Source: Alphaproteobacteria bacterium
Lineage (GTDB): Bacteria > Pseudomonadota > Alphaproteobacteria > JASGCL01
Direction: 5' to 3'
NCBI GenBank assembly: GCA_051010635.1
Contig: JBPCVJ010000002.1
Location: 14,848-78,847 of the forward strand
Length of the DNA stretch: 64,000 bases
The position numbers and the translations under genes were made by a program. The notes under the pieces were generated by a model. That model was given only the letters and a program-made list of their open reading frames with translations, ran no database searches and was not told the origin of the DNA. Of this stretch, positions 4,471-50,488 are shown one piece after another (position 1 is the first letter of the stretch; each line of letters opens with the position of its first letter).

Positions 4471-5334
4471 ATGAAAAATTTAATCACCATGTTACGCCCA
4501 CACCATTGGGTTAAGAATCTTTTGGTTTTTACGATTTTGGTTGCCGCCAAACAGGCTTTTAACATTGAATTGCTTTGGCAAAATATCATTGTTTTTTTTC
4601 TATTTTGCCTATCTGCATCAAGCGGTTATATTATCAATGATGTGCTGGATAAAAAAAATGATATGCGGCACCCATCAAAAAAATTTCGCCCGATCGCATC
4701 GGGCAAGGTTTCTATATCCATAGCCTTCATCACGACTTTTATTTTATTATTGCTGATGGCATGTTTATCATTGGTATTTTTTTCACCAATGGTTTTATAT
4801 TTGCTGTTTGGTTATTTTCTATTGGCAGTTTTTTATTCCCTCTACTTAAAAAAATTACCGATACTTGACCTGATGATGCTTTCTTTATTTTATTTTTGGC
4901 GGGTGTGGGTGGGTAGCGAATCTGCAAACATACCATTAAGTTTTTGGCTTATCATTTTTACATTGTTTTTATTTTTTAGCCTATCTTGCCTGAAACGATA
5001 TGTTGAATTACAAAAATCAAAAACCAACCGAGAATATAAAAATATCGGTGGGCGTGGCTATTTGCCAAATGATGATATATTTGTCATGTTGATTGGTATA
5101 GCTTCATCTTTTGCGGCATTGGTGGTTTTGTCTTTATATTTTCATGAAATCAATTATTATTTTTCTTATATCTATATTATCATATTATTCCTTTGGCTGA
5201 TGCGGCTTTGGCTATTGAGTTATCGCAATATCATGTATGATGACCCGCTGGTATTTGCCATCAAGGATAAATGGTCGCTGATATTATTTTTCTTTGCTGG
5301 TGTTTTTATCATCATCGATACGCTGTTGATATAA
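4471..5334 (+). CDS. UbiA-family polyprenyl-phosphate 5-phosphoribosyltransferase (DPPR-synthase, Rv3806c-like)
   Basis: N-terminus RPHHWVKNLLVFTILVAA matches the Rv3806c motif RPRQWVKNVLVLAAPLAA. YIINDVLDKKNDMRHPSKKFRPIASGKVS matches YLVNDVRDVEADREHPTKRFRPIAAGVV, including the Asp-rich NDxxDxxxD. The 287-aa protein has about 8 TM segments. Confidence 0.8.
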   Translation: MKNLITMLRPHHWVKNLLVFTILVAAKQAFNIELLWQNIIVFFLFCLSASSGYIINDVLDKKNDMRHPSKKFRPIASGKVSISIAFITTFILLLLMACLSLVFFSPMVLYLLFGYFLLAVFYSLYLKKLPILDLMMLSLFYFWRVWVGSESANIPLSFWLIIFTLFLFFSLSCLKRYVELQKSKTNREYKNIGGRGYLPNDDIFVMLIGIASSFAALVVLSLYFHEINYYFSYIYIIILFLWLMRLWLLSYRNIMYDDPLVFAIKDKWSLILFFFAGVFIIIDTLLI

Positions 5335-5349
5335 ATTTTATAAAATTTT

Positions 5350-7102
5350 ATGAAACATATACAACATTTAAAAAAATATCTTCTAGCTAATAAAATAGCT
5401 AATTATATTTTTTCTTATCGCCTTTACATATTATTTATATTGTTGGTGGTGGCGTGTTTTTATTCTTTTTATAAAAATTCATTCCATATTGTCAAACCAC
5501 ATGCCATGGCAAGCTATCAAAAAAAGGTGGAGGCAATGGTTCTTAGCTATCTGGTTGCTGATGAATATTCTATTGATACCCATAACAAGTGGGGGTTTCT
5601 TATGCAGGACCATTCTTATTATAATCATCTCATCATACCAGAAAATCTTTCTATGCATAATATTTGGATGAATAATAAAAAACGCGAATCAATAACATTG
5701 AGGGTAAAATCTTATCAACCCATAGATTATCTATTACCCAGCTACACTCACCCAAAACCCCATACCCTTGTAAAATTAGAATTGGATAAAAATAGTGCCT
5801 TGCCCATAGATGGTCGTTTTAATTATGGAAAAAATAATTATGGTTATAATGGTAGAGATTTATTTATTAATAAAAAATCACCCCCCCCCCCCCCTCAAAA
5901 CCATCATTAGGGCGGTTGAAATAATTGGCGATAAAACTTATATCACCGTTGCCTTACCATTGGATAAATTATCAGCCATCAATCAAAATAATTTTACCAT
6001 TACACTATCTGGCGAACCCATCACTGCAGATAATATTAAAACATTTGGCTTTTGGCCCTATTTCAGTGCCATAGGCGGACAAAGCTATATTTTTTCTTGG
6101 CTTTACAAACATACCGATAACAAAGATATTAAAACATTATGGAAAATCACTGCCCTGTTATCAGCCATTGGCTTGGTTAGTTTAACATTTTTATATTATC
6201 GTTCCAATATCTTTCCCAAGGGATTTTCAATCGCATTTTTTGTCAGTATATTTTTTTCTACCGCCTTTACCCTATATGCTAGAAATCCTTACTGGATACC
6301 ATTCTTATGGTTTTTGCCAATCATATTTGCATTGCTTTATGTCAAGGCAAAATCTATCAAACAACAGAGGATAACTTTATTATTATTATATTTTGCCTTT
6401 CTATTAAAATGTATGACCAGCAGTTATGAATTTCTTAGCCCCATTGTTTTGATGATGGCGGCACCTGCCAGTTATTTATTTTTTGTAAGTAACAACTATA
6501 AAGATAAAATTGCAAATGGTAAAAAATTTCTTATGATATTTTTTATAACATTTTTAGCTTTTGTAACAACCATTTTTATTCATGCCTATATGGTAGGTGA
6601 AATGATATTGCATCAAAATATCATTGAGGGATTCAAATATCTCTATAATGAAAGATTCCGAGTTAGAGTTATAAATCTTTCAGGCTCAGATGACATATTT
6701 CAGCTTCATTCTTATAGTCAACCTAGCCACGAAGTATCTTATCTATCGGTATTAAAAACTTATATTTTTGATAGATGGTATTATAACAATATTATTTGGG
6801 GTATATCGGGGAAATGGTTTCCATGGTTAATTTTTTTAACTGGTTTGATGATCATATCTAATGATTTTATACCCCTAACCCAACGCAAAAGAAAAACCTA
6901 TAGTGCCTTATTTTTATCATTTGTTTTGGTGGCACCATCTTGGTATATTTTGGTAAAACCTTCAGCCTATAATCAGCAACATATATATTATATGGCATGG
7001 TATTTTGGATTCATCGCGGCATTATTTTATATTATAGCCAGCCACTTAAACATCTATAGAAAAATAATTTTTTCTTATGGCAAAATGAAACTTGATAGAT
7101 AA
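5350..7102 (+). pseudogene. GT-C-like multi-pass membrane glycosyltransferase, disrupted by a +1 frameshift in a C14 tract (phase-variable or pseudogene); paralog of the 14079-15878 gene
   Basis: ORF 5350-5910 (frame 1) ends ..KKSPPPPPQNHH*. ORF 5810-7102 (frame 2) continues ..HPPPPLKTII..NNFTITLSG..KTLWKITALLSAIGLVSLTFLYYRSNIFPKGF. The two pieces align collinearly with the N- and C-terminal parts of the intact 599-aa paralog; removing one C (or adding two) fuses them. Confidence 0.75.
5881..5894 (+). repeat. Homopolymeric C14 tract inside the coding sequence (slipped-strand mispairing site)
   Basis: Fourteen consecutive C from 5881 to 5894, read directly. The homologous position in the paralog (14748-14753) has only C6. 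Confidence 0.9.
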
Positions 7103-7125
7103 AATTTTTTTTATATTTTATCTAT
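7094..7125. terminator. Weak AT-rich inverted repeat between convergent genes (possible bidirectional terminator)
   Basis: atagataaaat (7095-7105), a 9-nt loop, then attttatctat (7115-7125). It overlaps both stop codons. The stem is almost entirely A/T, so stability is low. Confidence 0.2.
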
Positions 7126-8580
7126 AAATTCTGTGCCATATTTTTTGGCTATCGCCATAATGGTGGCTTGGGGGTTGCAACCCATAGCGGTTGGCACTTG
7201 CGACCCATCGGCAATATAAAAATTATCATAACCCCATACCAAACCTGTCTGGTCGGTTATACCCATCTGGCGATTACCGCTTGGCGGGCAAGACCCCATT
7301 AAATGGATAGACATCAAATTATAATTTTCGGTTCGAGAAGAATCTTTTTTTACATCTGCCATATTATGCCACCCCCGATGCCCAGCAATATCGGGCATAA
7401 CTTTTTTGGCACCATATGCAAACATAATTTCAGCCAAATACCCCATACCTTTTTTTAAATTAGCAAAATCAACCATCGCCAATTTATAGTTAATCAACGG
7501 GCTATCAAGCATTGGCAAAAAATGAAACCTACCTTTGGCGGTGGGCTTTATCATAACATAATAGGATCCAACATAATCCATATCCTGTAAAAATTCTGAT
7601 GCATTGTCATAATTATTTGCCAATGCCATACCTACAAAACCTCTGGTAAAAATAGAACCACCAAGCCGAATATCTGGCATAAATTCAGAAACAAAAGCCC
7701 CTGGCGCCATGGAAGCAGCCGTTTGAATTTTTTTAGGAAACAAACCAAACATTTTTAGCGTTGGGTGTAATTGAAAATTATCAAATGGCAAATTTGACCT
7801 TACGCCAGATTTTTTTAATATCATTGGCGTGTGGATAGAGCCAGCACAACAAAATACATATTTGAATTCAATCACCAGCTTTTTTGATGTATTATTTTTT
7901 TTCACATCGCAATAGGCACGCACAGCTTTTTTACCCTTAAAGCTAAGACGATTCACACGGCAACCCAATATCACCCTCATACCCCTTTTCAATGCCAATG
8001 GCAAAAGGCTGTTTGACATTGAGCGTTTGCCCTTTATCGGGTTGCCATATATTCTATCATCTTTTTCATCGGGCTTCATAGCAATCGATAAATATTCAGC
8101 GGCATAATTTAATTTTGCGGCACCTTTGATTAAAACATCGCTATCGGCATAATATTTTTTATGATAACTCACATGCATCTGTGAAAAACTTTTATCCCAA
8201 TAGCGAAGCAAATTTTTATAAGACCATGAATCATCTAATTGATAGGCACTTTGCCAATTTTTTACCACCTGTTCATGAGGGCGTTGAAATATTGCCGAAT
8301 TAATTTCGGTTGAACCGCCAAATGTTTTGCCTTCGGCAAATGCGATATTAGGTTTGCCCAATGTTGCGGTTAAACCCGAATTACGCCACAATTTGATAAA
8401 AACCTCTTCGGGTGTTTTTAATTGTTTGATGGGGTATTTTTCCCCCTCCTCCACCATCAAAACATCCATACCATGTTGGGTGGCAATATCGGCTATGGTT
8501 GCCCCGCCAGCTCCAGAACCTATAATCAACAGGTCAGCTTTATAAATTTTATCAGTGGCATTAACATTGATGAAGGTCAT
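7111..8580 (-). CDS. GMC-family FAD-dependent oxidoreductase
   Basis: N-terminal Rossmann DLLIIGSGAGGATIA..VLMVEEG; 489 aa with GMC-type C-terminal region (..GSCPPSGNRQMGITDQTGLVWGYDNFYIADGSQVPT..). Confidence 0.8.
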   Translation of the reverse strand: MTFINVNATDKIYKADLLIIGSGAGGATIADIATQHGMDVLMVEEGEKYPIKQLKTPEEVFIKLWRNSGLTATLGKPNIAFAEGKTFGGSTEINSAIFQRPHEQVVKNWQSAYQLDDSWSYKNLLRYWDKSFSQMHVSYHKKYYADSDVLIKGAAKLNYAAEYLSIAMKPDEKDDRIYGNPIKGKRSMSNSLLPLALKRGMRVILGCRVNRLSFKGKKAVRAYCDVKKNNTSKKLVIEFKYVFCCAGSIHTPMILKKSGVRSNLPFDNFQLHPTLKMFGLFPKKIQTAASMAPGAFVSEFMPDIRLGGSIFTRGFVGMALANNYDNASEFLQDMDYVGSYYVMIKPTAKGRFHFLPMLDSPLINYKLAMVDFANLKKGMGYLAEIMFAYGAKKVMPDIAGHRGWHNMADVKKDSSRTENYNLMSIHLMGSCPPSGNRQMGITDQTGLVWGYDNFYIADGSQVPTAMGCNPQATIMAIAKKYGTEFIDKI

Positions 8581-8849
8581 TTTTTATCCCCCTCAAATAA
8601 AACCAAAAAAGTAAGCGAACGATAAACCCTTATCAATAATTGAAAAAAATGAATATGTTTGCGTAAAATTTTATCCAATTTCAAAAACAAAAATGGTAAA
8701 TAACATAAAGTCAAAATAACAATAGCCCATTTCACATGAAAGGGAGCATTTTTTAATGATTGTTTAACAAATAAAATATGGGGTGGCTTGACCGCTTTGC
8801 GAAAATGAAGCGGCAATGAATGATGTGTCATCAAACGCACGAATATCAT
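8577..8849 (-). CDS. Small hypothetical membrane protein (90 aa) packed between the SDR and GMC genes
   Basis: The ORF exactly fills the gap: its start is 7 nt after the SDR stop and its stop overlaps the GMC start. One predicted TM (WAIVILTLCYLPFLFLKL). No recognisable family. Confidence 0.35.
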   Translation of the reverse strand: MIFVRLMTHHSLPLHFRKAVKPPHILFVKQSLKNAPFHVKWAIVILTLCYLPFLFLKLDKILRKHIHFFQLLIRVYRSLTFLVLFEGDKK

Positions 8850-8855
8850 ATTGAT

Positions 8856-9896
8856 TTAAAAAATTTTTGATGCTTGCTTGGCAAGGGATAATATCCCGCG
8901 CGGCACTGGCTTGCGATGGGTGGATTGATGGGTTTTATCAAAAGAAGAATAGTTTTTTAAATACCAGCGATAGCTATCAACCATCATATCAACATTGCCA
9001 TATTTCGGTTGCCAGCCAAGTGCTTTGGTTATATGGGTAATATCATAATAAAAATCCTTGTGATAACTTAAATAATGCCATGGACCCAAGGGGGATAATT
9101 TTAACTTATCTGCCGTCAATAAAACCAATTTAGCCAAACCAATCGGTAAAGAAATAACTTTTGATTTTGCACCAACTTTTTTAATAAAAGCTTCTAGGTC
9201 ATGCCTTAAACAGCCAAATGGCAAACCACCAACATTAAATAAACCAGATTTTTTTAACAGGGATGCCCTTACACTCACATTCGCCAAATCTTCAACCTGC
9301 ACAAATTGAAACAAATTATTACCCTTGCCAATGATAAAGATATTGGCATCGTCTTTTATCCAATCAAATAATATTTCAAATATACCAAGCCGTTCCTTGC
9401 CAATGACGGTGCGTGGTCTTATTAAACAGGCTGGCAAACCATCTTTCATCGCCTGTTGCACCAATTTATCAGCATCGGCTTTGGCTTTGCCATATTGTTC
9501 TATCGGTTGCAATGGCGCATTGGGCAAAATAGGCATGGTTTTGGCTAAACCAAAAATTGCCGATGATGACATATTACAAAGCATTTTGATATTATGCTTG
9601 AAACCCATATCAATAATATTTTTTGTGCCCACCACATTGACTTCATGAAATTTTTTGCCCGCTTTCGCCAATGGCACCAAAGCGGCATTGTGGTGAATAT
9701 GGGTAACATGTTTCATCACCTTATCGACTGCCGCCTTATCGGTTACATCCAAATAGGCAAAATGATCCTTGAATTCATCATTTTGCCAAATATCGGTTAG
9801 TAATATATTTTGTTTTTTTGCCAAAAGTTGCCTAGCAATATGGCTACCCACAAAACCCGAACCGCCGGTTATCAAATGTAAATCATTATTTGCCAT
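8856..9896 (-). CDS. NAD-dependent epimerase/dehydratase (extended SDR)
   Basis: N-terminal LITGGSGFVGSHIARQLL Rossmann motif; 346 aa with extended-SDR layout. Confidence 0.8.
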   Translation of the reverse strand: MANNDLHLITGGSGFVGSHIARQLLAKKQNILLTDIWQNDEFKDHFAYLDVTDKAAVDKVMKHVTHIHHNAALVPLAKAGKKFHEVNVVGTKNIIDMGFKHNIKMLCNMSSSAIFGLAKTMPILPNAPLQPIEQYGKAKADADKLVQQAMKDGLPACLIRPRTVIGKERLGIFEILFDWIKDDANIFIIGKGNNLFQFVQVEDLANVSVRASLLKKSGLFNVGGLPFGCLRHDLEAFIKKVGAKSKVISLPIGLAKLVLLTADKLKLSPLGPWHYLSYHKDFYYDITHITKALGWQPKYGNVDMMVDSYRWYLKNYSSFDKTHQSTHRKPVPRGILSLAKQASKIF

Positions 9897-10050
9897 GGTT
9901 ATACCCCATCAATATTTTAATCATTTTATCTATGGTTATAAATATCATCGCCATTCATCTGTTTGTTGGTCTTATTAGCCAATATCATAGCGATTGGCAA
10001 ATAGATAATTATCTTGTTATTTTAATAAAAATTATTTATCAACTAACATC

Positions 10051-10677
10051 ATGACGCAAAAAATTTTTCTAAAATGTTTGCTTTATATTGGCTATTATAG
10101 CTGTGGGTTATTTTTAGGATTCCTATTTTATATATTTGGAATGGCATTAGGTATGTTTGATAATGATTTGCTATTTTACCGCGGCATGAAAGTTATTTTG
10201 GTAAGCCAAATATTTTTGCTTGGCTTGTTATTCTTTTTTGATAAAATCATCAACCAGCACCAAAATACCAAAATAAATCAGCTATTAACATTGGCACCAC
10301 TGAAACCCCATATCATAGCCATTGTGCTTGTAGGGGCAAGTATCAATGTGTGTTTTCATTCGGTTGTGCCCACGATCATTGATAGATCCATCAGCGTTTT
10401 TTTATTAGGGTTCACCCATAATTTAGAAAAAAATAATCAAACAGCTAATATTGATAATTGGCGTCAAGGGTTTGATAAAATCTATGCCGATGATTATCAA
10501 GCCATCGAGCGGCGACTAGAAGAACAGATAAGAAGCGGTAATGTTATAACAACATCAAATGGCACAATTATGCTTACCAACAAAGGCAAACAATTTCTTA
10601 TAGCGGCGGCTTACCTTAACAAATTATTGGGGATTGATAATAAACATGTTAACCCGCCCGTTGATAAATTAAATTAG
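10051..10677 (+). CDS. Hypothetical membrane protein (about 4 TM N-terminal half, soluble C-terminal half)
   Basis: 208-aa ORF directly upstream of the GT-C-like gene (23-nt gap). Hydrophobic segments LLYIGYYSCGLFLGFLFYIFGMALGMF, VILVSQIFLLGLLFFF, IIAIVLVGASINVCF. No PAP2 or GtrA motif recognised. Confidence 0.45.
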   Translation: MTQKIFLKCLLYIGYYSCGLFLGFLFYIFGMALGMFDNDLLFYRGMKVILVSQIFLLGLLFFFDKIINQHQNTKINQLLTLAPLKPHIIAIVLVGASINVCFHSVVPTIIDRSISVFLLGFTHNLEKNNQTANIDNWRQGFDKIYADDYQAIERRLEEQIRSGNVITTSNGTIMLTNKGKQFLIAAAYLNKLLGIDNKHVNPPVDKLN

Positions 10678-10699
10678 ACCAAATATATTATCGCCCACC

Positions 10700-12508
10700 A
10701 TGCTACATCAGGTCAATCATCTTAAAACCAGCCCCATCTATATTACCTTTACTGCCATAACGATAATATTATATGGTTTGGTTATTTTCTTTGCCAAATA
10801 TGGGTTTGATATACTTGATGAGGGGTGGTATCTTTTCACTATCACAGACCCTGATTTTACCAAATCACGGTTTCATTATGGTTTGGGGTATCATTATCTT
10901 TTTCTTTTATTAAATGAAAATATTATTCATTTAAGAATTGCCAATATCATTATTTTTTTCATATTGGCATTCTTATTAGCAAAAGAAATTCTTTTTTCTT
11001 ATTTCAAATCATTCAAATTACGCCCTTATCAATTTTTTATTTTATGCGTGGCAATGGCATCCATATCATTATTATATTTTGTTATCATTTACACACCCAG
11101 TTATAATTCTCTTGCTATCAAAGCCCTCATCATTATAGCCATAGGTCTTATCAATATCCTTAATCACCCTACGCCAAAATTAAAAAAATGGTGGCAACAA
11201 AATAGGTGGGGTGCATTAATTTTAGGATTTGGCATGTTTTTACTTTTTCTTGCCAAACCATCATCATTTTTAGCTGTTTGTTTTTTTCTATTGATGATAT
11301 TTTTATTTTATAAATCATCTAGACTGCTCTTTATAATAGCTGGCATCGCAAGCAGTTCACTATTTTCCATTTATATTATTTTATATTTTGAAGCCGATAT
11401 TATCAAATATATTGAAGAAACAAAAAACACTATCATCGCCCTTCATAAGTTAGATCGCCATTATACATGGATCACTCAATTAAACCTATTGCGGGGGATT
11501 TACATACCCAACATAGCATATATTTTCCTTGCCCTGCCCCTCATATATAAAATAGCACTTACCTATCGCCCATCAAGCTCATGGCTTATCATTCGTTTTA
11601 TCAATCGGTATATTGATATATTTATTATGATATGTTTGTCATTGGGTATAGGTTTGGTAAAACCTTCTCATGTATATGCTTTACAAACTTTTTTTGCCAT
11701 CATGATAGTTTATTGGGCTATTTTGATAAATATATTTCACAATAATAAATTCATTGACCAATTATTAAACCCCAAGATATTTGCCATTATATTATTTTGT
11801 TTTTTATCACCCTATCTATTTGCCTTTGGCACAGCCAATATTATATTGTTTCAAATGTGCTTAGGCGCAATTTTATTTGCATTATGCGCTATTTTATTAT
11901 TATCATTTTTACCAAACAAGCCAAATTATCTTTATATCGGTATTTTATTTTCACAATTATTAACTTTTTATTGCACCACCTATTATATCCACCACCCTTA
12001 TCGCCATATTTCTTTTTTTTCTAACCAATTGGCACCATTAAAATTTTATGATAGCCATAACAAACCCTACTACCTCACCGTATCACAAAATTATAAAAAA
12101 CTAATAGAAAAAAGTCGGTCAATTTTTTATAATAATGGTTTTGCCGCAGGAACGCCCATTATAGATGCAACAGGTGTAGCAACCGGAATTATATTTGCGC
12201 TTGATGCCACCCCATTGGGGCGATATTTTTTAATTACCGAAACTGCTATCAAACATGATATTAAACAAAATCAATGCGATAGAATTGCAAAATCTTGGCT
12301 GATGACCATGCCAAGCCGCACAAATGACCTTTGGGGCGTTGTGCCATTACGCCCCAAAGAAATATTAAAAACCTATCATGCCGACCTAAAAACCGATTAT
12401 GATTTTATAGGCAATATCACGGCTTTAAATTTTCGCACCAAAGGCAAAACCGAAACCATCAATTTCTATCGCCCCAAACCTATACTAAAAACCAAATGTA
12501 AAAAATAA
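10700..12508 (+). CDS. GT-C-like polytopic membrane glycosyltransferase (ArnT/PMT-like architecture)
   Basis: 602 aa with more than 10 TM segments. TM1 is followed immediately by the acidic motif FDILDEGWY, the position of the catalytic DE/DD in GT-C enzymes. Lys-rich C-terminal tail. Confidence 0.5.
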   Translation: MLHQVNHLKTSPIYITFTAITIILYGLVIFFAKYGFDILDEGWYLFTITDPDFTKSRFHYGLGYHYLFLLLNENIIHLRIANIIIFFILAFLLAKEILFSYFKSFKLRPYQFFILCVAMASISLLYFVIIYTPSYNSLAIKALIIIAIGLINILNHPTPKLKKWWQQNRWGALILGFGMFLLFLAKPSSFLAVCFFLLMIFLFYKSSRLLFIIAGIASSSLFSIYIILYFEADIIKYIEETKNTIIALHKLDRHYTWITQLNLLRGIYIPNIAYIFLALPLIYKIALTYRPSSSWLIIRFINRYIDIFIMICLSLGIGLVKPSHVYALQTFFAIMIVYWAILINIFHNNKFIDQLLNPKIFAIILFCFLSPYLFAFGTANIILFQMCLGAILFALCAILLLSFLPNKPNYLYIGILFSQLLTFYCTTYYIHHPYRHISFFSNQLAPLKFYDSHNKPYYLTVSQNYKKLIEKSRSIFYNNGFAAGTPIIDATGVATGIIFALDATPLGRYFLITETAIKHDIKQNQCDRIAKSWLMTMPSRTNDLWGVVPLRPKEILKTYHADLKTDYDFIGNITALNFRTKGKTETINFYRPKPILKTKCKK

Positions 12509-12535
12509 AATCAATGTTCAATTTATCCCATGCGA

Positions 12536-13966
12536 TTAACATTCTGGCAGGGCAACCGAAACTTTACTGGCAAGCCCACCCTCGGAGGTTTCTTTGTATT
12601 TATGCATCATATCCTTCCCCGTTTCCATCATGGTTTCAATCACCTTATCCAAACTCACCAGATGCTCGCCATTGCCATGTAAGGCAAGGCGTGAAGCATT
12701 GATAGCCTTCACCGCACCCATGGTGTTGCGTTCAATGCATGGCACCTGCACCAAACCCTTTATCGGATCACAAGTTAGACCAAGATTATGCTCCATACCT
12801 ATTTCGGCAGCATTTTCTACCTGCTCAACCGAACCACCCATGGCTGCCGTCAATCCCGCAGCCGCCATAGAACAAGCCACACCAACCTCCCCTTGGCAAC
12901 CCACTTCGGCTGCCGATATGGAAGCATTTTTTTTATAAAGCATACCTATTGCCGCAGCGGTTAGCATAAAAATTCGCATATTTTTTATATCCTTACCACC
13001 TGGCACAAATCTATGGTAATAAGCCATCACAGCAGGAATAACCCCTGCCGCACCATTGGTCGGGGCGGTAACCACACGACCACCAGCGGCATTTTCTTCA
13101 TTCACTGCTAGGGCAAACACATTCACCCAATCCATGGTTTTCATAGGAATTTCATCAAGCTCCACATCGCCCAATTTCATTTTTATTTCTTGATTCGATT
13201 TTTCTAAATTATCGGCTATTTGTTTGGCACGCCGCCGAATATTAAGCCCACCGGGCAAAATTCCTTCTTGTTGTATGCCACGCTCAATAGAATTGTTCAT
13301 CGCCTGCCAAATATTATCTATAGATTTTTCAATATCTTCTTGCTTACGCCACACCAATTCATTTTCCATCAATAGTTCGGCAATGGTAATATTTTTTTTC
13401 TTGGTGATGCTTAACAATTCTTCGGCACTGTGAAAAATATTGGGCAAAACCACATTGCTTGATGCAGCGGCATTGCTAACGCCGCGGTTAAATTCTTCAT
13501 CGCTTAATACAAAACCTCCCCCCACCGAATAATATGTGTCTTGATAAATCAATTTGCCATTTTTATCGGTGGCAATAAATTCCATCGTATTGGAGTGTTT
13601 TTCTTTAAATTCGCCATAACGAAAATCCAAATGTTTTTCATAAATAAACTCAATTTCATGTTGCTGATGAAGCAAAAGTTTTTTGGATTTTTTGACATGT
13701 TGAATCTTATTTTCAACCAAATTAGGGTCGGTTTCATCTGGTTTTTCGCCCATCAAACCAAGCACAATGGCACGGTCGGTGGCATGCCCCAACCCCGTCA
13801 TAGCCAACGAGCCATATAGTTTCACCGTCAATTCAGCCACATGGTTTAATTTTTTTTGGGTTACCAAATCAGCCACATACCGATTTGCTGCCACCATAGG
13901 CCCCACCGTGTGCGAACTAGACGGCCCAATACCAATTTTAAATAAATCAAAAACCGATAGATGCAT
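12536..13966 (-). CDS. sdaA: L-serine dehydratase, single-chain Fe-S type
   Basis: [24 protein letters not shown] is the canonical SdaA N-terminus, and Cys-containing beta-domain motifs are present. Start at ATG complement 13964-13966. Confidence 0.9.
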
Positions 13967-14078
13967 AATGATACATTCTACCACAAAAAGCCACGATTAT
14001 CAAAAAATTATTGTATTTATATTAAAAATAATTTAGAAAAAACAAGCAAACTATCATTTTTTTACCATCATTCGCATC

Positions 14079-15878
14079 ATGCATATCAAATTAAAACCAT
14101 TATGGTCCTATCGCCATATTGCCATATTTTTGCTTTTGCTAACGGCTTGCTTTTTTTCTTTTTATAAAAATAGCTTTCGCATCGTAAAAAATAATTATCT
14201 TTTTTACCAAACACCCAGCTATGATGAAATGTTGGTCATTGGTAGAATTTTGGTTGATGAATATAACTTAAAAAAAATAATTACGGTGTATAATTTAGAT
14301 AAAATTGATAAACACAATACCAACAGATATGTTGGAAAAGAAGGGGCGACAAAATATAATTTGCTGTGGCCAGATGTGCCTTACCATTTAAGACTTTCTT
14401 ATATTTTTCAATTGCCACAAAATATATTACAAAATAACCAGCCGATTGACGATATAACATTATCACCCATTGCCTATGAAACAAAATGGTGGAAAAAACC
14501 TAACATCATATTTAATAACATATTTAAATTAAGTGATGATAAAATATATTTAACTAGAATAAAGGTCAAAAAAGATAAACTCAATTTTAAACAACATTAT
14601 CAATATAGGAATCAGCCAAGCGAAACAGCCTATAGACATGATTACAGCTACAGCGGTAGAACATTGCTTATCGGCAATTACAAAACCATGGTAAGGCAAG
14701 TTTTATATAGCCCTGCCTCAGACCTTGCCTATATCCACACCACCATACCCCCCGATGAATTACAAAAAATAAAAAAAAATAATTCCACTATCACCCTATC
14801 GGGCAATGTAATGGAAAAAGAAATATTACAAAACAATGTGCGTTTCGCCAGTTATATCAGCACCGTGGGATTACATGGTTATATTTTTTCTTGGCTGTTT
14901 CAACACAGCGATAAAAACCTTGAAACATTGTGGAAAATCACATCATTATTATCGGCATTGGTTATCGTTGGTTTAACATTTTTATATTATCGCAGTCATA
15001 TTTTTCCCAAAGGTTTTGCCATTAGTTTTTTTGCAAGTTTATTCTTATCGGTTATTTTTACCGCCTATGCTAGAGATCTTTATTGGCTACCCTTCACATG
15101 GTTCTTACCATCTATCTTTGCTATCCTCTATATCAAGGCAGAAAACCATTGGCATAGAATTATTTATATATTGCTGACCTATCTTGCCTTTACCTTAAAA
15201 AATATCACCACTGGCTATGAGATAACATCCAGCGTCATATTAATGGCGGCAGCACCAGCGGCTTATTTGCTATTAACCAGCCAATCACTCAATCAAAAAA
15301 TTATCGCCCTCAAAAAATTTTTTATGATATGTTTTCTAGGCGTAGCAGGTTTTTTCACCAGCCTATTGATACTTGCCTACATCAGGGGCGATTCTAATAT
15401 AATTGATGGGTTAAAATCCATTTATGATGTCAATATAACCAAACGCATTATCAATAAAAGCGATGAGAATATTCCTGGCTACATAAGGGATTCCTCCATA
15501 TCTTATTATGAAGTATTTAAAATATTCTTTCGCTGGAATCATGATTGGGGTTATCCCCAAACATTAAACATAATTGATTGGTTACCGATAAAATTTGTTC
15601 ATTTATTTTTCTTATCTTTTTTTATCACTCTATCCAGCTGGGTGGTGCCATTCTTACAACACAAAAAATATATCTATAACAGTCTATTTATCATATTCTT
15701 TCTTACCGCTTCATCTTATATTATCTTGGCAAAATATGATGCCTATCTACATATATTTCAAAATTTGGTTTTGTGGTATTTTGGTTTTATTGCCGCCATG
15801 TTCTATATCATTGCCAGTGGTATGATGACTTATGGCAAAATAATACTTGCCTATGGCAAAAAGAAAATAGCTGTCTGA
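14079..15878 (+). CDS. GT-C-like multi-pass membrane glycosyltransferase (intact paralog of the frameshifted 5350-7102 gene)
   Basis: 599 aa. N-terminal TM, then a conserved acidic motif (RILVDEYNL versus LVADEYSID in the paralog), then at least 10 TM segments. Long collinear identity blocks with the 5350-7102 product (e.g. ETLWKITSLLSALVIVGLTFLYYRSHIFPKGF). Confidence 0.55.
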   Translation: MHIKLKPLWSYRHIAIFLLLLTACFFSFYKNSFRIVKNNYLFYQTPSYDEMLVIGRILVDEYNLKKIITVYNLDKIDKHNTNRYVGKEGATKYNLLWPDVPYHLRLSYIFQLPQNILQNNQPIDDITLSPIAYETKWWKKPNIIFNNIFKLSDDKIYLTRIKVKKDKLNFKQHYQYRNQPSETAYRHDYSYSGRTLLIGNYKTMVRQVLYSPASDLAYIHTTIPPDELQKIKKNNSTITLSGNVMEKEILQNNVRFASYISTVGLHGYIFSWLFQHSDKNLETLWKITSLLSALVIVGLTFLYYRSHIFPKGFAISFFASLFLSVIFTAYARDLYWLPFTWFLPSIFAILYIKAENHWHRIIYILLTYLAFTLKNITTGYEITSSVILMAAAPAAYLLLTSQSLNQKIIALKKFFMICFLGVAGFFTSLLILAYIRGDSNIIDGLKSIYDVNITKRIINKSDENIPGYIRDSSISYYEVFKIFFRWNHDWGYPQTLNIIDWLPIKFVHLFFLSFFITLSSWVVPFLQHKKYIYNSLFIIFFLTASSYIILAKYDAYLHIFQNLVLWYFGFIAAMFYIIASGMMTYGKIILAYGKKKIAV

Positions 15879-20081: not shown

Positions 20082-20320
20082 AGCTTAAATCTAGCATCGG
20101 CTGATAATAATTTTTTACCACACCGCACCACCACCAAAAGCGATAACGCGGTGCAAATATCTATTGTCATTCTTTTTGACCGATAGCGATCAATGGTATT
20201 TTTAGCCTTTGCTTCATAAAAAAATACCTAACCGAGAATCATAACAAAATCAACTGGCGACCTGAAACCCAAAGATAAGGCTTGACCCTCAACAGAATCC
20301 AACCTATCGATTACATTTGC

Positions 20321-23300
20321 ATGCCGCAAAGAAAAGATATTCACGCTGTATTTATTATTGGTGCAGGCCCCATCGTTATCGGTCAATCTACCGAATTTGA
20401 TTATTCTGGTAGCCAAGCCTGTAAAGCCTTAAAAAAAGCGGGGTATCGTATTGCCCTGGTTAATTCAAACCCCGCCACCATCATGACCGATCCTGCCCTT
20501 GCCGATGCCACCTATATCGAACCCATCACACCCGAGGTGGTGGCTGATATTTTGGCAAGAGAAAAAAAAATACATCCAAATGAAAAAATGGTTTTGCTAC
20601 CCACCATGGGGGGGCAGACCGCACTTAATACCGCCATGGCACTTTACAAAAATGGCACATTAAAACAACTTGATATTGAAATGATAGGGGCAAAACCACA
20701 AGCGATTGACAAAGCCGAAGACCGCGAACAATTTCGCCAAGCAATGAAAAATATTAACCTACCAAGCCCAAATGCTATGTTGATAAAAAATCAGGCAGAG
20801 GCAAAACTTGCTTTAGAAAAAATTGGTTTGCCATTGATTATCCGCCCAAGTTTTACACTTGGCGGGCGGGGTGGCGGCATTGCCTATAACCAACAAGAAT
20901 ATTTTGATAAGATCAATTATGGCTTACAAGAAAGTCATTTGGCAACCGATGGGCAAGGTTCGGTTTTGGTCGAACAATCGGTGTTGGGTTGGAAAGAATT
21001 TGAAATGGAGGTGGTGCGGGATAAAAAAAACAATGCGATTATTGTTTGTTCAATAGAAAATCTTGACCCAATGGGCGTGCATACCGGCGATTCAATTACC
21101 ATTGCCCCCGCCCTTACCTTAACCGACAAAGAATACCAAACGATGCGTCTTGCCAGTTTGAATGTGTTGCGTGAAATTGGTGTAGAAACTGGCGGGTCAA
21201 ATGTACAATTTGCTATCAATCCAAAAGATGGTGCGATGGTGGTGATAGAAATGAACCCACGGGTTTCACGCTCATCGGCGCTGGCATCAAAAGCCACTGG
21301 TTTTCCCATCGCATCGGTGGCGGCATTATTAGCAGTTGGTTATAGTTTAGATGAATTACCCAATGATATCACTGGCGGAAAAATTCCTGCCAGTTTTGAA
21401 CCTAGCTTGGACTATGTCGTCACCAAAATCCCGCGTTTTGCTTTTGAAAAATTTAAGGGTGCCGATGATACCCTCACCACCACCATGAAATCGGTTGGCG
21501 AGGTGATGGCTATTGGGCGTAATTTTAAGGAAAGTTTTCAAAAAGCCCTCGCCAGTTTAGAAACACCCAAAGCACTATTACAATTATTTTATCAACCTGA
21601 TAAACCATCGGAAGTTATTGATGTTGTTGATGGTGATACAATACTATCTTTCTTATCCACCCCAACCCACGAAAGAATTTATTATGTCGCCAGAGCCTTT
21701 GCTGTTGGTTATGGTATAGAAGAAATTTACAGACTAACCAACATAGACAAATGGTTTCTTTCACAAATAAAAGACATCATAAATATAGAAAAAAACAATC
21801 TCAAATTTAGAAAAAAAAATATTTTGCAAGGTCGCCCCGAACCCAAAATAGATATAACCGATATATTGCAAATGAAAAAACAAGGTTATAGCGATGCCAA
21901 TATCGCCCTGCAATTAAGAATGGATGAAGAAGCCATTCGCACAAAAAGAAAAAAATATGGCATTGTGCCAATATTTAAACGCATTGATTCTTGTGCTGGG
22001 GAATTCCCCTCCCCCACCCCTTATCTTTATTCTTGCTATGAAGGCAGTATAGTTAATCGTAAATATGAAAAGGGCGAAGATGAAGCCAACATCACCGATT
22101 CAAATAAAAAAATTATCATCTTGGGCGGCGGACCCAATCGCATCGGGCAGGGCATTGAATTTGATTATGCTTGTGTGCATGCCGCATATAGTTTGAAACA
22201 ACAAGGCTATGAAACCATCATGATCAATTGCAACCCCGAAACCGTATCCACCGATTATGATACTGCCGACCGATTATATTTTGAACCACTAACTGCCGAA
22301 CATGTTTTGAATATATTAGATAAAGAATCAGAAAAAGGCAAGATATTGGGGGTGATAGTGCAATATGGCGGGCAAACACCATTGAAATTGGCAGATGACA
22401 TCATCAAGGCTGGTTATAATATTTTAGGCACTGATTTCACATCAATCAGCAATAGCGAAAACCGCCAATATTTCAGCCGCATAATTGAAAAATTACAATT
22501 ACAACAACCGCCCAACCAAACCATTACCTTTGATAGAAATAAACCATTGGATGAATATTATAAAAAATTTGGCACCGATAGCAAAAAAAATAAAGAATCA
22601 TTATCTACATTGAAAAAACTATCTAATCAAGAGGATGATAAAATAAAAAAAAACATATTATCCGCTTGCCAAAAAATTGGTTTTCCCATCATCATCCGTC
22701 CATCAGAAGTCTTGGGCGGACGGGCAATGGAAATTATATATGATGAAACATCATTCAATGATGCTATTGGGAATTTTATTAGGGAGGTGATAGAATTATC
22801 GGCTAACGCCTCAATCCTGATTGATAAATATTTGAATGATGCCATAGAGGTTGATGTTGATGCGATCGCCGATATAGATGATGATGGCACGGGCGAAGTT
22901 TATGTGGCTGGCATTATGGAACATATTGAAGAAGCGGGGGTGCATTCGGGAGATTCGGCTTGTGCATTACCAACATTTTCTTTATCACCAAACATTTTAA
23001 CAAAATTGGAACAGCAAACAAAAATTTTAGGAAAAGCATTTCGTGTCAAGGGTTTGATGAATATTCAATTTGCTATCAAAGGCGAAGATATATTCATATT
23101 AGAAATGAATCCTCGTTCTAGCCGCACCGTGCCCTTCGTTGCCAAGGCAACCAATTACCCGCTGGCAGAAATGGGGGCTCGGGTTATGGCGGGTGAAAAA
23201 TTATCAAACTTGCCTTGCCCCAAACCATTGACGGCAATGACAGATTTGCCTTTTATATCGGTGAAGGAAGCGGTTTTTCCATTTGATCGTTTTATTAATT

Positions 23301-23887
23301 TTTCTAACAATAATGATACCAAAGGTGCATTGGTGGCATTAGGTCCTGAGATGCGTTCAACCGGTGAAGTGATGGGGATAAGCGAAACCTTACCAGCGGC
23401 TTTTGCCAAATCGCAATTGGCATCGGGTGCTGGTATCCCCTCGCCAAAAACAGCAAAAGGCAATATATTCATATCTATCAAAGATAGCGACAAAAAAATG
23501 GTTTTGCCGCTTGCCAAAAAATTACAACAGGCGGGGTTTCATATTCTTGCCACCCATGGCACCGCCAATTATTTTGAAAAAAATAACATCAGCGGTATCA
23601 CCAAAATAGATAAATTGAGTCAAAAAAATATCCAACAACCATCAATCAAAGAATTATTACTAACAAAAAAAATTGCTATGGTATTTAACACCATGGAGGG
23701 GGGGGTAAGCCGTGGCGATGCCAAAACCATCCGTGCCCTTGCGGTTAAGAATCACATACCCAATTTCACCACCACCCGTGCTATGCAACAAGTTGTCAAT
23801 GCCATCAGCCATAGTGAAGAAAAAAATGAACCCTTAAGCCTACAAGAATGGCATAAAAAAATTCCCAAAACCACAACAAAAAAATAA
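20321..23887 (+). CDS. carB: Carbamoyl-phosphate synthase large subunit
   Basis: [30 protein letters not shown] is the canonical CarB start, and two ATP-grasp halves and an MGS-like C-terminus are present. About 120 aa longer than typical because of low-complexity insertions (e.g. ..[39 protein letters not shown]..) and a Lys-rich tail. Confidence 0.95.
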
Positions 23888-44990: not shown

Positions 44991-45782
44991 TTAAAAACTG
45001 GCGGTTAAAAAATAATTAACCTTAAAATTATTTTTTGACAAGGCAGTTTTTTTTAATAAAGGATTATACAAAAGCCCCGTCAAATCTTTTGGCAATAACC
45101 CTGCCAGACGACAATAACCACTCAATTCTTCGGGGCGAACAAATTGCCGATATTGATGCGTGCCTTTTGGCAAAAGATGCAAAATATATTCTGCCCCAAC
45201 AATTGCCAACAAAAAAGAATTGAGATTACGATTGATGGTTGAAAATATCACCAAGCCATCAGGTTTAACCAATTGAGCAATGTTTGCCACAAATTTTTTT
45301 CCATCCATCACATGTTCAATCACCTCCATCGCCAACACCATATCAAATGCCGCCAGATTTTTTTTATCGGCTAATAATATCTCAGGTGTTGCCACATCAA
45401 AGGTCAAACCATCATAGAATTTTTGTTTTGCCTGATAGGTGCGTGCCACCTTGATAGTGGTTGGCTCGGCATCTATACCAAGCACCACCCCCCCCCATTG
45501 ATATAAAGCCACCGATAACAACCCACCGCCACAGCCAATATCAAGAATTTTTTTGCCCGCTATACCATGACCACAATGTGCCTGCCATTGCTGTTGAATA
45601 TAATCGCACCTGATAGGATTCAATTCATGCAAAGGGCGAAACGCCCCATCGGGGCGCCACCATTCCTCAGCCATAGTTTGAAATTTTGCCAATTCATCAT
45701 CGCTGATATTATTGGTAAATGATGATGAATCGCCCTTAGCACCATATAATTTATTTTTTGTATTTTTTTTCGCCCGTGCCAT
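44991..45782 (-). CDS. ubiG: Bifunctional 3-demethylubiquinol 3-O-methyltransferase / 2-polyprenyl-6-hydroxyphenol methylase
   Basis: UbiG N-terminal region EEWWRPDGAFRPLHELNPIRCDYI and SAM motif I KILDIGCGGGLLS. Divergent from lysC, a conserved alphaproteobacterial arrangement. Confidence 0.9.
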   Translation of the reverse strand: MARAKKNTKNKLYGAKGDSSSFTNNISDDELAKFQTMAEEWWRPDGAFRPLHELNPIRCDYIQQQWQAHCGHGIAGKKILDIGCGGGLLSVALYQWGGVVLGIDAEPTTIKVARTYQAKQKFYDGLTFDVATPEILLADKKNLAAFDMVLAMEVIEHVMDGKKFVANIAQLVKPDGLVIFSTINRNLNSFLLAIVGAEYILHLLPKGTHQYRQFVRPEELSGYCRLAGLLPKDLTGLLYNPLLKKTALSKNNFKVNYFLTASF

Positions 45783-50023: not shown

Positions 50024-50382
50024 AGCCGTGGCTCGGCGATTGCAAATATGATAAATATTTGAGGAAAGTCGGGGCTTCGTTTTGGAATCCATTCCGCCTA
50101 ACTGGCGGCGGCATTGTTGGCGACGGCAATGTTAGTGAAAGTGTCACAGAAAATAACCGCCATCATGATGGTAAGGGTGAAAAGGTGGAGTAAGTGCCCA
50201 CCGCCATTTTAGCAATAGAATGGGCAAAGACAAACCAAATGGGAAGCAAGACCAAATAGGACTATCTTATAACTTTAATTCCAAAAAGTTGATAGTCGGG
50301 TTGGTCGCAAGACAATGGTGGCAACGCCATTGCTAGATGAATAATCGCCCAATACAGAACCCCGCTTATGAGCCACGGTATT
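50024..50382 (+). ncRNA. rnpB: RNase P RNA (bacterial type A)
   Basis: P1 pairing agccgtggctc (50024-) with gagccacggt (-50379); P4 signature gaggaaagtcggggcttcg; conserved aagggtgaaaaggtg and acagaaccccgcttat; U-rich tail 50390-50405. Confidence 0.85.
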
Positions 50383-50488
50383 TATTGTAACTACCTTTTT
50401 TGTTTTATCTTATAAAAAAATGTTTTTTTTATTGCAAATGGTGTTAAAAATGCATTAGCTTAACTATAATAGATTTATAAAAAACATC

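Follow-up and report, generated by a model that had tools for sequence, protein, structure and literature searches.

Introduction

What do two large membrane proteins of no named family do in a bacterial glycan locus, and why is the gene for one of them interrupted exactly at a run of cytosines? The locus lies in a stretch of 64,000 nucleotides, below called the window, which covers positions 14,848 to 78,847 of contig JBPCVJ010000002.1 (assembly GCA_051010635.1) from an alphaproteobacterial metagenome-assembled genome (MAG). A preliminary description of the window had pointed to a pair of proteins of about 600 amino acids (aa), here called A and B, as paralogues with a common topology, one intact and one switched by its C tract. 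We find that A and B are homologous from end to end, that their membrane core is predicted to adopt the GT-C fold of membrane glycosyltransferases, and that the single lesion of A coincides with a tract of 14 cytosines (C14). Our favoured reading, to which we assign a probability of roughly 0.62, is that A and B are GT-C transferases fed by a lipid-linked sugar donor from neighbouring UbiA-, GMC- and SDR-type enzymes, with A switched by the C14 tract. The features on which this reading rests are:

5350-7102, forward strand: gene A, paralogue with the predicted GT-C fold of membrane glycosyltransferases, in two open reading frames, 5350-5910 and 5810-7102

5881-5894, forward strand: homopolymeric C14 tract within gene A, at codon 178

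14079-15878, forward strand: gene B, intact 599-aa paralogue with the predicted GT-C fold, annotated in the MAG as "hypothetical protein ACR2NY_00505"

A and B are homologous over their entire length

With its two frames fused, A aligns end to end with B at 38.9% identity over 620 columns (E 1e-103). Both halves contribute. The C-terminal part of A shares 44% identity with B over 425 aa (E 3e-90) and the N-terminal part 33% over 129 aa (E 3e-11). The preliminary description had named similarity confined to hydrophobic segments, compositional in origin, as the finding that would speak against paralogy. Against shuffles of A that preserve composition, the membrane core scores z = 69.7 and the soluble part z = 15.7, and because of these scores we attribute the similarity to homology and not to hydrophobic composition. 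All motifs quoted earlier are present, namely FYKNSF(H/R)IVK, ADEY in A and VDEY in B, FLYYRS.IFPKGF and YW.PF.WFLP.

Identity is unevenly distributed. In residue numbering of B, it amounts to 57% in the first transmembrane helix (TM1), 37% in the helices of the first loop, 32% with 48 gap columns in soluble residues 66-200, 43% in the beta-rich residues 201-262, 53% in core residues 263-460, 39% in the loop 461-505 and 48% in the C-terminal core. From these regional values it follows that divergence is concentrated in the extramembrane parts, as had been proposed for the soluble loop. A and B are 39% identical to each other, a distance at which synonymous sites are saturated, and each is 33-35% identical to X, an orthologue found by protein search with B (35% identity). 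Since A and B resemble each other slightly more than either resembles X, the duplication is lineage-specific.

An unnamed family with a predicted GT-C fold

Scans with Pfam and NCBIfam returned no model for A, B or the sampled relatives. A word-indexed protein search with B found B itself and the single orthologue X, and the same search with a 60-sequence profile added nothing further. A whole-library HMMER search with a profile built from A, B and X returned 1014 cluster representatives (clusters at 50% identity) with E <= 1e-3, 215 of them with E <= 1e-30, and most of these matches span the membrane core. It is only this search that revealed the family. Its named members are "hypothetical proteins", such as WP_042886932.1 of Cupriavidus necator, which aligns with the full length of A and B at 29% identity. 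The 60-sequence family alignment, on which all residue conservation below is counted, shows the motif F.Q.DSE.LV.G.I.AD after TM1, followed by PY.SQ.G.QG, LSPW...FARNLYWVPF.WFLP, GYEY.SS, HA..RGD, DV.RRTYGD and LSWFVLAK.HSYIH.H.NFVLWYFGF.

An AlphaFold2 model of B calculated from this alignment has a mean predicted local distance difference test score (pLDDT) of 84.9 and a predicted template modelling score (pTM) of 0.89. In the model, TM1 (residues 11-30) leads into a first periplasmic loop with short helices at 39-44 and 47-61, followed by an inserted beta-rich domain at about 65-262, which is partly of low confidence. The membrane core extends from 265 to 598, and about nine membrane helices are bundled within it at 281-598. 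Hydropathy agrees with these helices. The earlier proposal of TM1 and a 10-TM core needs correction in this respect, as the model has about 10 helices in total with TM1 counted among them.

Compared with solved structures, the model of B resembles GT-C enzymes. The fold comparison scores are 15.9 for ALG12, 14.7 for Pmt4, 14.2 for ArnT, 13.5 for AglB, 12.1 for ALG9, 11.8 for ALG3, 11.6 for Pmt2, 10.7 for Pmt1, 10.5 for GPI mannosyltransferase I, 10.3 for AftA and 10.2 each for AftD and AftB; PimE, DPY19, PglB and STT3B are also returned. The first eight ranks of a Foldseek search with the model are all GT-C enzymes. The polytopic architecture lies within the 7-13 TM helices of the GT-C superfamily, and the membrane core is structurally similar to solved members. 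GT-C enzymes have a cytoplasmic N-terminus, and the assumption that the N-terminus of B is inside is supported by the clustering of lysine and arginine at helix ends on the predicted cytoplasmic side (16, against seven on the periplasmic side; hand count on the model).

Based on the model, A and B are predicted to have the GT-C fold without detectable sequence kinship to any characterised GT-C family. Of the remote homologies suggested earlier, the one to arabinosyltransferases, which are GT-C enzymes, is therefore borne out at the level of the fold. A and B are set apart from ArnT-, PMT- and ALG-type GT-C enzymes by the absence of detectable sequence similarity and by motifs of their own, DSE...AD, ARNLYW.PF.WFLP, GYE, RRT and AK.HS..H.H.N. 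From the Emb, Aft and TfpW proteins of D-arabinofuranose pathways they differ, with 7-9% identity in structural alignments and no match to a Pfam arabinosyltransferase model; neither A nor B is a member of the Emb, AftA, AftB or AftD families by Pfam or hidden Markov model search.

Candidate catalytic residues on the first periplasmic loop

The acidic motif about 35 aa after TM1 had been described as a conserved (V/A)DEY, and structure prediction had been proposed to place it relative to the membrane. The relevant segments are:

5530-5568, forward strand: first periplasmic-loop helix of gene A, with E61 at 5530-5532 and D71-E72-Y73 at 5560-5568, candidate catalytic acids

14226-14264, forward strand: first periplasmic-loop helix of gene B, with E50 at 14226-14228 and D60-E61-Y62 at 14256-14264

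In the model, the DEY residues of B lie on the periplasmic-loop helix 47-61. According to PMC11127046, the first periplasmic loop is where the catalytic acid of GT-C enzymes is usually found. The family alignment does not bear out DEY as a family motif. The orthologue X carries ADKF at this position. D60 alone is kept, as D in 42 of 59 sequences and as E, Q or A in the others, while lysine is the commonest residue in the E61 column and the Y62 column is weakly aromatic. The better conserved acid is E50 of the DSE motif, ten residues upstream of D60, which is E in 51 of 57 sequences and is retained in A, B and X. Both E50 and D60 are located on the same first-loop helix, and either of them could be the catalytic base of B, as could E61 or D71 in A. 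Assuming the N-terminus to be inside, the model would further place R332-D333 (in ARN/D), K374, E381 (in GYE), R456 and K552 at periplasmic helix ends.

A putative lipid-linked donor module adjoins gene A

Gene A begins 15 nucleotides past the stop codon of a UbiA-family gene, and it is followed by genes on both strands, among them candidates for the synthesis of a lipid-linked pentose:

4471-5334, forward strand: UbiA-family gene resembling polyprenyl-phosphate phosphoribosyltransferases, 287 aa, Pfam UbiA E 1.2e-21

7111-8580, reverse strand: GMC-family oxidoreductase dependent on flavin adenine dinucleotide (FAD), candidate for the oxidase step of lipid-linked pentose epimerisation

8577-8849, reverse strand: small hydrophobic protein of 90 aa between the GMC and SDR genes, no Pfam or NCBIfam match

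8856-9896, reverse strand: SDR-type epimerase/reductase dependent on nicotinamide adenine dinucleotide (NAD), candidate for the reductase step

10051-10677, forward strand: membrane protein of 208 aa, no Pfam or NCBIfam match, whose orthologue adjoins the single A/B orthologue in related genomes

10700-12508, forward strand: polytopic membrane protein of 602 aa (ACR2NY_00495), which carries the GT-C-like motif "FDILDEGWY" directly behind TM1 and ends in about 170 aa of soluble sequence

The best NCBIfam match of the UbiA protein is PRK08238 (274 bits), and three models of decaprenyl-phosphate phosphoribosyltransferases match it with E 8e-42 to 8e-31; all of these matches are below the curated equivalog cut-offs. 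The protein carries no HAD phosphatase domain. Gene B is located apart from this group, just beyond a serine dehydratase gene, between sdaA and an NDUFA12-like gene. The glycan genes are AT-rich, with a G+C content of 31% for A, 33% for B, 32% for the 602-aa gene and 34% for the UbiA gene, compared to 39% for the window, and a promoter and terminator scan of the locus was uninformative in such DNA. For the 602-aa protein we obtained neither a Pfam or NCBIfam match nor homologues in the word-indexed search. A comparison of the family profile with this protein by hhalign showed no relation to A and B, and its AlphaFold2 model from the single sequence (pLDDT 42) is unusable. Since its gene takes the place of the A/B orthologue of related genomes, it may represent a third transferase that draws on the donor of A and B without being related to them. 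The 90-aa and 208-aa proteins could serve as hub or flippase. Elsewhere in the window, ordinary housekeeping RNAs are found, a class A RNase P RNA at 50024-50384 on the forward strand (254 bits) and a tRNA-Arg(CCT) at 1899-1975 on the reverse strand.

The association with the donor genes recurs in related genomes. A scan of the genome collection identified only two syntenic genomes (L001 and L002), one of which has a chromosome of 1.63 Mb. In both, a single A/B orthologue lies directly beside the genes for a 201-aa protein, the SDR, an 89-aa protein, the GMC oxidoreductase and UbiA, and it is the only large membrane protein of the UbiA-GMC-SDR cluster, hence the only one at hand there to consume what the pathway makes. 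The 602-aa gene and the homopolymer tract are absent from L001 and L002. Relative to the L001 orthologues, the GMC protein is 64% identical, the SDR 69% and the 90-aa protein 51% (to the 89-aa protein); the donor enzymes GMC and SDR are thus far better conserved than the transferases. The locus in the window is rearranged with respect to both relatives. The 602-aa gene stands in place of the single orthologue beside the 201-aa gene, A and B have moved, A to a place behind UbiA and B to one flanked by sdaA and the NDUFA12-like gene, and the 208-aa gene has the opposite orientation to its orthologue.

A more distant version of the module is found on symbiosis plasmids of rhizobia, for example pNGR234a of Sinorhizobium fredii NGR234 (L012, record 299625-307690, NGR_RS31055-31085). 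Its UbiA, GMC, SDR and small proteins are orthologous to those of the window, with identities of 32%, 37%, 37% and 29%, the last between the 90-aa protein and a 125-aa protein (E 3e-5). As in the window, a large polytopic "hypothetical protein" adjoins the module. In contrast to the window, the rhizobial UbiA protein includes a HAD phosphatase domain, the cluster encodes an SMR transporter, and by hhalign the adjoining polytopic protein of 658 aa bears no relation to A and B (probability 0.2). When plasmids were searched by tblastn with B, nothing matched. The pattern is one of a conserved donor module with interchangeable large membrane proteins, and in NGR234 the donor pathway seems to serve another putative transferase.

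Distant family members adjoin a conserved cassette

Beyond the close relatives, a conserved cassette adjoins six of the seven distant members that we sampled; the seventh locus, without the cassette, is the single exception. In Cupriavidus and other cases, these members are located within ABC-transporter O-antigen clusters. It encodes a membrane-anchored GT2 glycosyltransferase, a DAO-type FAD oxidoreductase, a roughly 260-aa protein which by eye appears to bind NAD, an AP_endonuc_2 TIM barrel, a second GT2 and, in five of the six loci (it is missing in L010), a 118-aa SMR/EamA protein resembling ArnE/F. The cassettes span the following coordinates:

L004: 7875-14404

L006: 6909-14893

L007: 13593-18590

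L008: 781-5727

L010: 8672-13292

L011: 3111-7991

The Cupriavidus cassette (L004) is the one that was scanned with NCBIfam. Its small protein matches ArnF/ArnE best, and its GT2 proteins match PgfS, ArnC, dolichyl-phosphate hexose transferase and PpgS best, all below curated cut-offs. Since such enzymes make and flip polyprenyl-monophosphate sugars for use by GT-C enzymes, the cassette independently supports a transferase role of the family. As a whole it appears to form an undescribed pathway for a modified polyprenyl-phosphate sugar. In L007, the family member P0011 (1103 aa, at 10001-13312) is fused to a C-terminal Acyl_transf_3 membrane acyltransferase, which suggests coupled glycosylation and O-acylation of one glycan.

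The C14 tract interrupts gene A in a single place

In the source MAG, gene A is annotated as two coding sequences, ACR2NY_00460 and ACR2NY_00465. The upstream frame starts at 5350 and ends with the stop codon TAG at 5908-5910, shortly after the C14 tract, and the downstream frame extends to 7102. Removal of one cytosine (13 C) yields a single open reading frame of 583 aa, and addition of two (16 C) yields one of 584 aa. The gene can therefore be read through with 13 or 16 C, but not with the 14 C of the assembly. The tract encodes a PPPP insertion in a loop of the first-loop insert, which is specific to A and absent from B and X. Of the two copies, B is uninterrupted and A is interrupted exactly at a slippage-prone sequence.

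The C14 tract is the only homopolymer of more than 10 nucleotides in the window. The next-longest C/G tracts are a C9 tract at 45488-45496, within an intact open reading frame for a 263-aa class I methyltransferase (44991-45782, reverse strand), and a G8 tract at 23698-23705, within the intact open reading frame for the large subunit of carbamoyl-phosphate synthase (carB, 20282-23887). Both are in frame and serve as an internal control for the homopolymer accuracy of the assembly.

A G/C homopolymer of 14 nucleotides is hypermutable by slipped-strand mispairing, as known for contingency loci. For this reason we expect the state of A to alternate, with tracts of 13 or 16 C turning it ON and tracts of 14 or 15 C turning it OFF. 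Gene A has the hallmark of simple-sequence contingency genes, an intragenic homopolymer of at least about 8 nucleotides whose length sets the reading frame. Homopolymer contingency loci are well established in glycosyltransferase genes, with lgt of Neisseria, fut of Helicobacter and examples in Campylobacter, and gene A is similar in that the length of an intragenic G/C homopolymer sets the frame of a putative surface-glycan transferase. The host differs from these examples, being an uncultured alphaproteobacterium with a probably small genome. A homopolymer switch is not known to have been described in a GT-C enzyme. Phase-variable gtr operons with GT-C enzymes in Salmonella use a methylation-based route (Broadbent et al. 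2010, as cited in PMC11194591). Of the earlier claim that A is switched by its C tract, the interruption of the frame holds, and the switching is a probable conclusion drawn from the tract and its frames, with the OFF state given by one consensus assembly.

A mechanism for the locus and its relation to known systems

By analogy with mycobacterial DPA synthesis and with the three-component pentofuranose systems treated below, the gene content suggests the following scheme. The UbiA-type enzyme would load phosphoribose onto polyprenyl phosphate to give polyprenyl-phosphate-ribose-5-phosphate, as its family matches suggest, and the 5-phosphate would be removed by a phosphatase encoded elsewhere. 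By analogy with DprE1 and DprE2, GMC and SDR would oxidise and re-reduce one hydroxyl group of the ribose and thereby produce polyprenyl-phosphate-arabinofuranose or -xylofuranose. The lipid-linked sugar would then cross to the outer face of the inner membrane by means of a flippase not identified in the locus. There, A and B would each move the pentofuranose onto a surface glycan, with the acidic base provided by the first-loop helix, and the first-loop insert of about 200 aa would determine acceptor or linkage. Slipped-strand mispairing at C14 would reversibly set A OFF or ON, so that a phase-variable modification by A would be placed on top of a constitutive one by B. On this analogy, A and B are most likely periplasmic pentofuranosyltransferases with one common lipid-linked donor. 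As divergence is greatest in the inserted domain, they probably differ in acceptor or linkage.

The closest precedent is the three-component pentofuranose system, which according to Kelly et al. 2024 (PMC11127046) consists of PPPRS, a flippase and the GT-C protein ORF12 (GT136). The window resembles these systems in the adjacency of a UbiA-type phosphoribosyltransferase gene and a predicted GT-C membrane protein, in auxiliary redox enzymes potentially capable of epimerising the lipid-bound pentose and in the common logic of periplasmic post-assembly glycosylation. In terms of its components, a UbiA-type synthase is present, and the phosphatase and the flippase are not recognised. In contrast to these systems, the UbiA protein of the window lacks a fused or adjacent phosphatase, no MATE or SMR flippase is recognisable nearby, and the oxidase is a GMC protein and not DprE1. 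ORF12 is described as having a small first-loop domain made of helices and, at its C-terminus, a carbohydrate-binding module. By this description A and B are set apart, as they have a first-loop insert of about 200 aa and no C-terminal domain, and we do not assign them to GT136 or to any arabinosyltransferase family. Relative to the mycobacterial and Pseudomonas D-arabinofuranose pathways, to which DPPR synthase, DprE1/DprE2, the Emb/Aft GT-C enzymes and TfpW belong, the GMC oxidase replaces the VAO-type DprE1. In its mode of operation, the proposed scheme resembles the PPPRS/flippase/GT-C pentofuranose systems, GtrABC and periplasmic modification of the Arn type.

Weighing of alternative explanations

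Several observations weigh against the reading of A and B as switched, pentofuranose-transferring GT-C enzymes. At the level of the fold, Foldseek with the model of B gave no match at E <= 1e-3, and profile searches against PDB sequences returned nothing relevant and so no sequence-level link to a characterised GT-C enzyme. At the level of the donor, Pfam and NCBIfam recognised neither a domain or gene for a phosphoribose phosphatase among the neighbours nor a flippase (MATE, SMR or GtrA-like), the 90-, 208- and 602-aa proteins included. The naming of the sugar as D-arabinofuranose or xylofuranose is a guess by analogy, given that the oxidase is a GMC protein and not a DprE1 homologue. With regard to the switch, gene A was found in one assembly only, an exact look-up of the ON-state proteins in the collection found none, and a metagenome pattern scan for tract-length variants of gene A was empty. 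A metagenome scan for relatives of A and B was empty as well. The count of 14 cytosines represents the consensus of one MAG and could stem from faulty assembly or from a population that is mixed; the length of a 14-mer remains difficult to determine, although the shorter tracts are in frame. Finally, the clade of A, B and X has lost the near-invariant family residues H432, H554, S555, N562 and P325-W326. At H432, B has L and X has Q, and at H554, B has D and A has S. Alanine replaces S555 in all three proteins, H558 has become Q in A, and N562 has become Y in A and C in X.

This loss can also be given a meaning of its own. In a tentative extension that we consider possible but doubtful, A, B and X would be a divergent branch of the unnamed GT-C family. 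The family would normally operate with the cassette of GT2, FAD oxidase, NAD reductase, TIM barrel and ArnEF-like protein, and in this lineage it would have been rewired to the UbiA-GMC-SDR donor. The loss of the periplasmic His/Asn motif (H554, H558/H560, N562 and H432) would mark the switch of donor, and one duplicate would then have gained the poly-C tract.

The strongest competing explanation is that A is a decaying pseudogene, or its frameshift an assembly artefact, so that only B functions and nothing is switched. We consider this unlikely. Long homopolymers are error-prone in sequencing, gene A is known from a single assembly in which it is out of frame, and A departs from the family consensus with H554S, H558Q and N562Y. 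Against this explanation, the sole lesion is located exactly at the tract, and the 583 codons of the repaired gene are free of further stops, compared with about 42 in a random sequence of this base composition. A keeps the four family-invariant residues S324, P344, F425 and R456 (in B numbering) and most of the near-invariant ones, including Y335, W336, K374, E381 and K552. B and X deviate from the consensus at the same positions as A, and the deviation is thus a trait of the clade and not a sign of decay. The in-frame C9 and G8 tracts show that the assembly is not generally poor at homopolymers, and a C14 run in a genome of 39% G+C is not a chance feature.

It is less probable still that A and B are GT-C-like in fold and act as flippases or scaffolds, with the unrelated 602-aa protein as the true transferase. 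No flippase is recognisable in the window, and in the 602-aa protein TM1 is immediately followed by a GT-C-like "DxxDE" motif. Non-catalytic GT-C-like proteins exist, as PIG-U/GAB1 in the fold comparison illustrate, and a flippase role has been proposed for TfpW (bioRxiv 10.1101/2020.04.19.049825). The related genomes argue against this division of labour, as L001 and L002 lack the 602-aa gene and have the A/B orthologue as their only large membrane protein in the cluster. So do the distant cassettes, five of six of which encode a separate ArnE/F-like SMR protein next to the family member as the only large polytopic protein. The predicted placement of the conserved charged residues at the periplasmic face, from model and alignment, also speaks against it.

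That A and B are O-antigen polymerases or ligases of the Wzy or WaaL type and not monosaccharide transferases, as might be suggested by their polytopic nature, their large periplasmic loop and their location among glycan genes, is very improbable, and we rejected it on the fold and Pfam evidence, since neither protein has a Wzy_C or O-antigen ligase domain or a WaaL fold match and WaaL appears in the Foldseek search only at rank 9 with a probability of 0.20.

Implications for the family and the organism

With A and B read as GT-C transferases, the new elements are an unnamed GT-C family, an oxidase of the GMC type, a donor pathway with duplicated transferases and a homopolymer switch in one of them. 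They provide a concrete lead and do not overturn current concepts. If the reading is correct, a large family of "hypothetical proteins", WP_042886932.1 among them, would gain a testable function in periplasmic glycosyl transfer from polyprenyl-phosphate sugars, and attention would be drawn to the conserved cassette of six genes found with the family in many bacteria. The periplasmic pentofuranose scheme would be extended by a GMC flavoenzyme in place of a DprE1 homologue, and two transferases, possibly three, would draw on one donor pathway. For the organism, the switch in A probably means that the bacterium can vary its surface sugars. A poly-C switch of this kind would allow it to vary the surface glycan stochastically, which would bear on its interaction with hosts or phages.

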